DNA of 64,000 nt from an uncultured Bdellovibrio sp. (GTDB lineage Bacteria > Bdellovibrionota > Bdellovibrionia > Bdellovibrionales > Bdellovibrionaceae), in contig CAWVRN010000026.1 in NCBI GenBank assembly GCA_963932905.1, positions 1 through 64,000 on the forward strand, given 5' to 3'. This document shows positions 23,533 through 25,083 of the stretch, piece after piece. The notes under the pieces were generated by a model, which was not told where the DNA came from, ran no database searches, and saw nothing but the letters and a program-made list of their open reading frames with translations. The stretch's first letter is position 1. Each line of letters opens with the position of its first letter. Made by a program: the position numbers and the translations under genes.

Positions 23533-25083
23533 ATGCAAAAAATTTATCTGCTTTCCGTCACTATTTTTCTATTGCTTCCACTGTGGAGTAACGCGGCACC
23601 CACCCTGATTTCGGGTTCCGACGCCATAACATTTATAAGCAAAATTAAAACTGAACTCGACGCCGTTAGTGAATTTAATCCTGATGGAATAAAATATGGA
23701 AACGAGTTCACCCTAGAAATTTCAAACGATGTTAGCGAGTCGACACTGTGGCAAGTGAAGGCGAACGAGCAATATATTACCTTCATGGTATCTGAGGCTG
23801 CGCTTAAAAACGGAATGAGTTTAGAACGATGGCTCCAGCTGTATGCATACATATATGCGGCCCACAGCTGGAGGCCTATGCGTTTGATGAATCAGCAGCA
23901 AGTACTGGCTGACCCCAACGCTTCGCCCGCTGAAAAATATTCGTTAGAGATTAACTCTCTGAATTTGCTCAAAGAACTGCATACTGCCACAGAAGATAGT
24001 GTGTGGGGCTACACTAGGGCCATCAGCATGCCCGAAGACCGACATTCAAAATCCTATAAAATGGGTGCCTACCTTTTTTTAAGTGTAGCTAACGCATTAA
24101 AAGTTCCTATCGTCATGGGCACTCCTACCGCAGAACTACGCGAACCCATGAACACTTTAGCAAAAACTTTAGGTGCTGTTTTGAACGAAATGATCGAGAC
24201 CAAAAAGGCCGTCGTCCAGCAATTCGTTAACGATCAAAATAAAGTTTCAAGATTTCAGAAATCGTCCGTTAAAGTGAGCGATCTTTTAGACCACGTTAGA
24301 AGAAATGATCGAAAAGGCGCAGCGCAGATGCTAGAATCCTCCTTGCCCTGGGATCTATTTACGGCCGCAGAAATGCGCTTATACACAGAGTTTATTGAAT
24401 CTATTCGCCATCCCAATTGGGACGATTCTATTTATCTTTTAAGGGGAACCAACGCCGCCTTGGATCCTAACCCCGAAGCCGATGGCCTAAGTTCAAAGTT
24501 ATTTAAATTAGATCGGCATCAAAATTTATCCGTCAACGAGGTGTTTACCAAGTACCGTGAAGAATGGGGCCTGACTGCTGTTAATCGCCGCAACGACATT
24601 CCCTTTCCCAGTTTTTTTAACTTTGGCGAAAATCATTCCCATTCTTCGGCATCGAAGGACGGCTTCCCGTCTGGCCTCATTAGCACGTCCCTTTCGGCGC
24701 CGGTGGTGAGCAAGTTTGCTAAAGGTAGCAAGGTCATGATACGTGTGGATTCACGTCGTATGTACCCAAACTTTGAGTCAATGATGTATTTTGAACGAGA
24801 AGTTTTAATCCCATTTTTTGTTTTTCCTGATGAGGTCGAGGGTCTATTAGTAAAAGATCCGACCACAAAAAAATCCGCGATCATTAGAACCAAAGATCAA
24901 TCGATAAACGTGCGGGCCACAGATTTTTTAATCAAAAATATGGCAAAAGATGCGCTCGCAGAAGTGTATAATCGCGAAGTATGGAAAAAAGCCTATCAGA
25001 GTTTGTTCCCAAAATCATTTCCCGAGTTAACTAGCGGTGCAAAACTGAATCAATGCATAGGGTTCTATCGCTCGCTGCCGTAG
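23533..25083 (+). CDS. Secreted putative ADP-ribosyltransferase (R-S-E class) with C-terminal CIGFYR tag
   Basis: Signal peptide; YLLRG (R), LISTSLS..VVSKFA (STS), FEREVLIP (ExE) in canonical order. Confidence 0.65.
   Translation: MQKIYLLSVTIFLLLPLWSNAAPTLISGSDAITFISKIKTELDAVSEFNPDGIKYGNEFTLEISNDVSESTLWQVKANEQYITFMVSEAALKNGMSLERWLQLYAYIYAAHSWRPMRLMNQQQVLADPNASPAEKYSLEINSLNLLKELHTATEDSVWGYTRAISMPEDRHSKSYKMGAYLFLSVANALKVPIVMGTPTAELREPMNTLAKTLGAVLNEMIETKKAVVQQFVNDQNKVSRFQKSSVKVSDLLDHVRRNDRKGAAQMLESSLPWDLFTAAEMRLYTEFIESIRHPNWDDSIYLLRGTNAALDPNPEADGLSSKLFKLDRHQNLSVNEVFTKYREEWGLTAVNRRNDIPFPSFFNFGENHSHSSASKDGFPSGLISTSLSAPVVSKFAKGSKVMIRVDSRRMYPNFESMMYFEREVLIPFFVFPDEVEGLLVKDPTTKKSAIIRTKDQSINVRATDFLIKNMAKDALAEVYNREVWKKAYQSLFPKSFPELTSGAKLNQCIGFYRSLP

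Follow-up and report, generated by a model that had tools for sequence, protein, structure and literature searches.

The closest described structural counterpart of the protein reported here is TreX, the C-terminal toxin of a Xenorhabdus bovienii Rhs protein (8s2m, 8s2n and 9gco). TreX is an antibacterial, arginine-specific ADP-ribosyltransferase (ART) that forms a 130-aa T6SS/Rhs tip, is encoded beside an immunity gene and modifies arginines of FtsZ; the same source gives ExE as typical of arginine-modifying toxins and its first glutamate as needed for transfer (PMC11606950). Other described ARTs that bear comparison are the A chains of cholera toxin (CT) and LT, pertussis (PT) S1, PltA and CARDS, together with scabin, pierisin-1 and MTX. 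Guanine-targeting ARTs use QxE, the motif found in scabin and pierisin, and scabin is a Sec-secreted ART.

We analyzed a 64,000-nucleotide stretch of a contig from an uncultured Bdellovibrio sp. (CAWVRN010000026.1; hereafter, the window), in which a first-pass annotation had proposed a secreted toxin candidate with an R-S-E catalytic signature. The ART-fold gene (ORF 23533-25083, plus strand) encodes a protein of 516 aa, P0001, which, judging from its predicted structure, likely carries a cholera/pertussis-class ART domain. P0001 shares with TreX the R-S-ExE set and an H..S-x-S-T..ExE arrangement that aligns in register at a non-significant E value. Unlike TreX, it is 516 aa long, starts with a Sec-type signal and contains a zincin-like domain, a three-helix cap, a long insert and a terminal Cys tag, and it lacks an immunity gene. 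The CT/PT-class enzymes belong to the same fold class (Z 5.4-6.6, identity 12-18%), with the arginine in register at the first strand, a histidine before the STS strand and, in CT and LT, the same ExE, but P0001 has no B-pentamer gene or AB5 context and its producer is a bacterial predator. Scabin, pierisin-1 and MTX aligned at Z 5.1-6.4, the last two with an alignment that also reaches into the helices preceding the core, whereas P0001 differs from scabin and pierisin in its ExE and its lack of ricin-type domains, and PF22596 was unmatched in this genome. Certhrax has the same broad order of a non-catalytic zincin-like domain followed by an ART; however, its match was insignificant (E 0.98), the P0001 ART ranks with CT/PT rather than C2/C3, and no protective-antigen partner was found. 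In most relatives, P0001-like proteins are accompanied by a second protein that resembles Cap17 and DtcC in its PNP_UDP_1 fold and conserved acidic residues. Those two are cytoplasmic anti-phage effectors (bioRxiv 10.1101/2023.01.24.525353), whereas the partner has a signal-like start, a terminal Cys tag and no PADLOC match.

The open frame of P0001 has a sole start codon, the ATG at 23533, and the gene has a GC content of 43.7% compared with 40.7% for the genome (features in Table 1). The signal peptide was called by eye from a basic start, a hydrophobic core and S-N-A ahead of the likely cleavage point; a crude detector flagged 51% of all ORFs and was uninformative. Upstream, at a distance of 231 nt, lies an ORFan of 94 aa whose start is signal-like; it was rejected as an immunity gene on account of this start, its lack of homologs and the presence of a different gene upstream in G527, the genome with the closest subfamily relative. 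Downstream, a hairpin is followed by a convergent lipoprotein-like gene. The region ahead of the ART gene showed neither a FliA-like nor a sigma-70 site, and an upstream GACA-N9-TGTC was dismissed as an operator, its 40 genome copies comparing with 22-60 at other spacings. The element TGTC-N9-GACA is enriched genome-wide (86 copies) and stands upstream of 7 of 60 tagged genes (see below) versus 47 of 3473 others; it is absent upstream of the ART gene. Elsewhere in the window, a SUKH/SMI1-KNR4 protein (27885-28724, minus strand; E 2.4e-7) with a WGR-like start by eye adjoins a small acidic ORF (28957-29445, plus strand), an orphan immunity-like pair that lies 2.8 kb from the ART gene and was not seen beside relatives. 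IS3-like transposase genes, identified by eye, occupy 26595-27847, the second ORF being split by an in-frame stop at 27449-27451.

Table 1. Features of the ART-fold gene and the adjoining gap, in window coordinates.
Feature	Position	Strand	Basis or remark
Whole gene	23533..25083	+	516 aa, likely secreted R-S-E ART-fold protein; AF2 mean pLDDT 90.7, pTM 0.87
Sec-type signal peptide, residues 1-21	23533..23595	+	Sequence by eye; alike N-termini in 5/6 close homologs
Zincin-like domain, residues about 22-150	23596..23982	+	VIA Z 4-5; without HExxH/EExxH
Long helical stalk, residues about 151-235	23983..24237	+	DSSP of model
Three-helix cap ahead of ART core, family-defining (N258-D-R260...P272-W...E280...P294)	24262..24414	+	Residue conservation
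ART catalytic core, residues about 297-455, cholera/pertussis class	24421..24897	+	Structure searches
R304, predicted NAD-binding Arg, strand 1	24442..24444	+	Kept in 153/155; start offsets versus LT, PT, CARDS
Long insert, R to H/STS	24448..24627	+	Family R-to-S spacing median 83; NQGxYxRRLR absent here
H368, conserved His preceding STS strand	24634..24636	+	149/155; aligned with TreX KHA, not significant
S384-T-S386, strand 382-386	24682..24690	+	S384 152/155; position 386 S or T in 143/155; DSSP
E421-x-E423, predicted ARTT-loop Glu and catalytic Glu	24793..24801	+	ExE 142/155, QxE 7/155; TreX/Vis register
C-terminal CIGFY tag, residues 508-512	25054..25068	+	Contains sole Cys of P0001
Terminator-like hairpin, gap between ART gene and convergent gene	25130..25168	.	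-23.1 kcal/mol (folded stretch); minus-strand terminator match

The AlphaFold model of full-length P0001 had a mean pLDDT of 90.7, and a model of residues 240-497 reached 93.1. When the model of these residues was searched with Foldseek, a check suggested by the first-pass annotation, all listed matches were ARTs, the best being 7ee6_G (E 9.1e-4), and the TreX entries scored E 0.002-0.007 with probability 1.00. The whole protein gave no match at E<=0.001, yet its top rows were nonetheless ARTs. A wide VIA search with the domain model retrieved 83 of 48,161 chains at Z>=2. The top ten comprised TreX, PltA, scabin, pertussis S1, LT, CARDS and pierisin, and the matches below them have ART-fold titles or are taken to be ART-fold proteins. 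The best match, TreX, had Z 7.8 over 110 aligned residues (rmsd 3.0, 18% identity) against the tool's bar of Z 8. No match reached Z 8, and matches less than 1 Z apart count as ties, so the ART class is clear and the nearest enzyme is not; because Z stays below 8 and identities to the VIA ART matches are 11-18%, the ranking among ARTs gives no substrate. In the model, DSSP placed R304 on strand 299-305, S384-S386 on 382-386 and E423 on 423-427. With strand 1 assumed gapless, the start offsets put R304 on residue 7 of LT, residue 9 of PT and residue 10 of CARDS, the catalytic arginines of these toxins; Arg7 of LT appears in a Foldseek match title. A profile of the segment from the histidine to FPDE aligned in register with TreX (E 1.4) and Vis (E 0.84), both non-significant. 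Together with the start offsets, this register is an indirect hint that R, S and E may come together in one NAD pocket. The Atlas neighbours of the domain were NarE, Lart1 and scabin-like clusters at 0.90-0.93.

The predicted catalytic residues lie exactly where they had been proposed: the Arg codon of YLLRG, a motif beginning at residue 301, is at 24442 (R304), STS is at 24682 (S384-T-S386) and ExE is at 24793-24801 (E421-R-E423). Motif order by itself is weak evidence for an ART; among the genome's 3534 ORFs, a loose R..STS..ExE pattern matched 4 and a more permissive version matched 50. The ART reading was decided by conservation and predicted fold rather than by motif order, and the cholera/pertussis-class reading is supported by the predicted fold, by the order and register of the motifs and by conservation. 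The family was gathered from six proteins of ~50% identity and then with a profile, which gave 205 cluster representatives at E<=0.001; the best 150 of these entered the alignment, and of the 156 proteins one 72-aa fragment was dropped, leaving 155 core segments. Among these segments, R304 was kept in 153, H368 in 149, S384 in 152, E421 in 142 (Q in 7) and E423 in 151, the full R-H-S-[ST]-E-E set was present in 137, and the cap residues R260, P294 and E280 were kept in 155, 154 and 151, respectively. R, H, S and both glutamates persisted across proteins about 20% identical. Within the seven closest proteins, 85 of 143 columns of the ART core were invariant versus 27 of 214 in the N-terminal half. 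In seven relatives (P0088, P0131, P0135, P0139, P0144, P0147 and P0155), ExE is replaced by QxE; the six that could be clearly placed cluster together with one further fused protein in a quick tree, a grouping that suggests a possible change of substrate.

The description of P0001 as unannotated was borne out, since it had no match in Pfam, NCBIfam, PADLOC, PHROGs or the PDB sequences. Its profile search returned 0 Pfam families, with Scabin-like, Enterotoxin_a, Pertussis_S1, NarE and Lart1 among those searched, and none of 37 family domain sequences matched these five at E<=3. One further search of PDB sequences gave coiled-coil noise only, and the PADLOC anti-phage profiles returned 0 families for seven scanned proteins, ART and partner included. 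Where family members are named, they are annotated as hypothetical, for example, WP_373999701.1 from B. bacteriovorus. The R-to-S spacing of the family has a median of 83 residues, and the mART pattern [YFL]-R-x(27,60)-[YF]-x-S-T-[SQT]-x(32,78)-[QE]-x-E, published in PMC7764402, is not matched by P0001 and is matched by 15 of 156 family proteins. The family was thus likely missed earlier because the long R-to-S insert breaks this pattern.

In the N-terminal half, residues about 22-150 resembled SprT-like and minimal zincins (6mdx, 2ejq, 3e11 and 4qhf) at VIA Z 4-5, and the Atlas leads for this domain were likewise weak, under the Atlas bar. The zinc site HExxH/EExxH is absent from the zincin-like domain of P0001, which is likely non-catalytic on this sequence evidence; [E/x]ExxH survives in most fused relatives (12 of 14) and in few single proteins (8 of 123). 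The whole-protein Foldseek search also listed anthrax lethal factor, edema factor and Certhrax, at E values that are not significant (0.4-1.0, probability <=0.07), and this resemblance was set aside.

Among 401 Bdellovibrionota genomes, the family was found in 62 at E<=0.001 and in 59 at E<1e-10, counts that include related and hence non-independent genomes. The other 339 gave no match, nor did any of nine same-genus genomes. Because it is missing from most genomes of the phylum and from all nine of the genus, the family is not a core predation gene. The close subfamily of P0001 was seen in 1 of 181 same-family genomes (G527), where the ART gene (L099:7123-8661) starts 19 nt after a gene for a 512-aa protein that bears the Cys tag at its N-terminus. 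The named records in which the family occurs come from Bdellovibrio, Bacteriovorax, Halobacteriovorax and related MAGs. In a quick tree of 70 of the 149 core rows, P0001-P0009 formed a long-branched group (SH-aLRT 100), and within this family, which is unannotated and belongs to the Bdellovibrionota, P0001 is divergent. This genome holds no P0001 paralog, a metagenome search returned only one identical copy (L088), and none of 59 pattern matches on viral contigs was confirmed by alignment as a relative. Other genomes carry tandem ART paralogs, with five in a row at L033:5246-13468 and pairs at L025:7258-10127 and L030:5977-8882, arrays that resemble effector expansion. The relatives occupy stable loci amid housekeeping genes, not toxin-immunity islands, and in Bdellovibrio the gene lies downstream of a bamB-like gene, identified by eye.

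The partner protein was present in 53 of the 59 ART genomes; six genomes of the 401, this one included, had the ART only and three had the partner only. At 46 loci in named genomes, ART and partner were fused in 25, a partner of ~790 aa stood in the locus in 14, and seven had neither arrangement. The separate partner (for example, L052:2377-4725; fused, for example, at L063:2565-6344) measures about 790 aa, is single copy in most genomes and has further N- and C-terminal regions. In the long relatives, which measure about 1260-1400 aa, a PNP_UDP_1-like domain is present, and PNP_UDP_1 matches were obtained in 10 of 47 scanned proteins at E<=0.01, one of them above the cut-off. The best PDB sequence matches of the partner were MTA nucleosidase and PNPs, at a weak E of 0.047. 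Its E469 and S490-D491 are invariant in 32 of 32 sequences and fall where the PNP/MTAN fold bears its catalytic acids. The partner was found neither in this genome nor in G527, which is 81% complete. A basic helix, NQGxYxRRLR, is present in 92 of 153 core segments, including all 14 of 14 fused proteins, and is missing from 61, mostly with genome context unseen; P0001 has no such helix. In a motif-filtered alignment of 37 sequences, the five without it all came from genomes without a partner match, and the apparent helix-partner link runs one way only.

The CxxFY tag noted in the first-pass annotation proved to be real, as CxxF[YF] ends 29 of 3534 ORFs compared with 1.4 expected; it also stands just after the N-terminal signal region in 35 ORFs, compared with 5.0 expected. 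Further tagged ORFs in the window are 8028-9698, 17988-18923, 19541-20641 and 55606-56289, and of 137 full-length members of the family, 128 have a cysteine among their final 22 residues. CxxF[YF] would seem to be a sorting tag, so far undescribed, that can serve at either terminus. Forty tagged proteins outside the window (24 C-terminal and 16 of the 28 N-terminal) were scanned against Pfam, and 22 had a match. Eight of the 40 bear domains dependent on ATP, NAD, a UDP-sugar or an acyl donor, namely two ABC1 kinases, two Clp-type AAA-M41 proteins, a PPDK_N protein, a glycosyltransferase, an acyltransferase and a PARP-like protein below the cut-off, and the remaining matched proteins include lipases, phosphatases and peptidases. 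The PARP-like stretch (E 3.2e-5) lies in a tagged protein of 945 aa, L123 (G000:C44:3671-6508), which is possibly another exported ART-fold enzyme. The Clp-type AAA domains are fused to M41 peptidase in tagged proteins of 1200-1300 aa, L120 and L121 (G000:C30:13797-17669 and C35:1562-5200). As ATP- and NAD-dependent enzymes are among the tagged proteins, we infer that the tagged cargo may work at a site outside the predator's own cytoplasm where ATP and NAD+ exist.

As the first-pass annotation had proposed, no immunity gene is evident beside the ART gene, none of the neighbours checked being immunity-like. Across the 46 named-genome loci, no small immunity-like gene recurred among the neighbours, and the ART loci showed no Rhs/T6SS/CDI-type delivery domain or cognate immunity neighbour. 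There were no dedicated secretion genes near the ART gene and no linked gene for a binding or translocation subunit, the sole recurrent dedicated neighbour at the loci of relatives being the PNP-fold partner. No ADP_ribosyl_GH (ARH) or Macro match was found in this genome, which is 98.6% complete, while controls gave matches in 7 and 8 of 14 genomes.

We propose, with a probability of roughly 0.5, that P0001 is a prey-directed, arginine-specific ART effector. Export to act on another cell, which the first-pass annotation had inferred, would fit the signal, the tag, the lack of an immunity gene and the lack of an eraser. In this mechanism, the signal would take P0001 out of the predator cytoplasm, so that no cytoplasmic antidote would be needed, and the terminal CxxFY tag would route it, with other NAD- and ATP-dependent cargo, to the prey cytoplasm or the bdelloplast. 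There, the ART domain would move ADP-ribose from prey NAD+ onto essential proteins and so shut the prey down, ExE pointing to arginine as the acceptor. The dead zincin-like domain and stalk may aid targeting or translocation, and the nucleosidase-fold partner would work beside the ART in most relatives, with the P0001 subfamily acting alone. We know of no route that carries a Sec substrate into the prey cytoplasm. The stable housekeeping loci, the patchy spread and the seven QxE relatives also argue against this reading. Prey of B. bacteriovorus is dead 20-25 min after entry with its cytoplasmic membrane intact (PMC13689555).

The partner would suit the scavenging of nucleotides no less than toxicity, a further point against the effector. 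On a different reading, unlikely in our view, the enzyme is mainly an NAD+ glycohydrolase that, together with the partner where there is one, would empty the prey of NAD+ and adenine nucleotides or harvest them, for depletion killing or for feeding the predator. Its appeal lies in the co-occurrence with a PNP/MTAN-fold protein, so often fused or in the same locus (25 and 14 of 46), in the invariant E469 and S490-D491 of that protein, and in the PNP-domain effectors Cap17 and Detocs, which deplete ATP according to bioRxiv 10.1101/2023.01.24.525353. However, the first glutamate, described in PMC11606950 as a requirement of the transferase step, is kept in 142 of 155 segments, the partner is absent from this genome, and its link to MTAN/PNP is weak (best E 0.047; one PNP_UDP_1 match above the cut-off). 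Modification of a nucleic acid or small nucleotide instead of a protein, as by scabin or pierisin or RNA-targeting enzymes, seems to us somewhat less likely again: scabin (Z 6.4) and pierisin (Z 5.4, helical cap also aligned) rank high, the QxE relatives number seven and most relatives have the basic helix (92 of 153), but differences under or near 1 Z leave this ranking tied, and P0001 itself has ExE, not the QxE of guanine-targeting ARTs, and no basic helix.

The stable chromosomal sites beside envelope and housekeeping genes such as the bamB-like gene, without dedicated secretion genes nearby, could be taken to indicate a regulatory or envelope-modifying enzyme of the predator's own periplasm or surface. 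We regard this as improbable, as NAD+ is scarce in the periplasm, the genome yielded no eraser enzyme, and patchy spread with tandem expansions fits conflict genes better. It is more improbable still that P0001 is a toxin against eukaryotic grazers or rival predators that docks through its zincin-like domain in the manner of Certhrax and the anthrax factors; the Foldseek rows for lethal factor, edema factor and Certhrax that hint at it are insignificant, and, although the Atlas places Lart1-like clusters close by, the neighbours include no recurrent component for binding or pore formation and the partner is PNP-fold rather than protective-antigen-like. That the ART fold is inactive, serving as an NAD-binding or structural protein, is scarcely credible given the retention of R, H, S and both glutamates across such divergent proteins.

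The prey-directed effector that we favour is not categorically new, because its fold and motifs belong to a known enzyme class. The family, its layout, its partner, the tag and the predator setting appear undescribed. The literature on ADP-ribosylation and Bdellovibrio, Bdellovibrionota or Bacteriovorax contained, in titles and the openings of abstracts, no description of the family, nor, with the same scope, was a description of the CxxFY tag found. The main texts of a comparative-genomics paper on the phylum (PMC11656739) and of a predation proteome paper (PMC12546842) contain neither 'ribosyl' nor 'toxin', and the available portion of PMC12428579 names no Bdellovibrio ART. We put forward, tentatively and as a possibility we would not bet on, that the family forms an undescribed two-enzyme prey-shutdown module, in which an exported ART and an exported nucleosidase, encoded side by side or fused, would be addressed by the tag to the prey cytoplasm. 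The CxxF(Y) tag would then also route kinases, AAA proteases and a PARP-like enzyme, and the window gene would be an offshoot able to act without the partner, having lost it together with the basic NQGxYxRRLR helix.

A 2026 review states that many invasive steps of predation are still unexplained (PMC13689555), and most of the predatory enzymes in the papers cited here are either adhesins or hydrolases of wall, lipid or protein. A new ART family that escapes both standard profiles and the published mART pattern, and that is present in 59 of 401 genomes, named B. bacteriovorus strains included, is a direct candidate for the shutdown of the prey cytoplasm. If the two-enzyme module is real, no earlier toxin family of these predators would be known to act in the cytoplasm, and the module would imply an unknown delivery route, and the CxxFY tag would offer a concrete handle on how predator enzymes pass into the prey cytoplasm.
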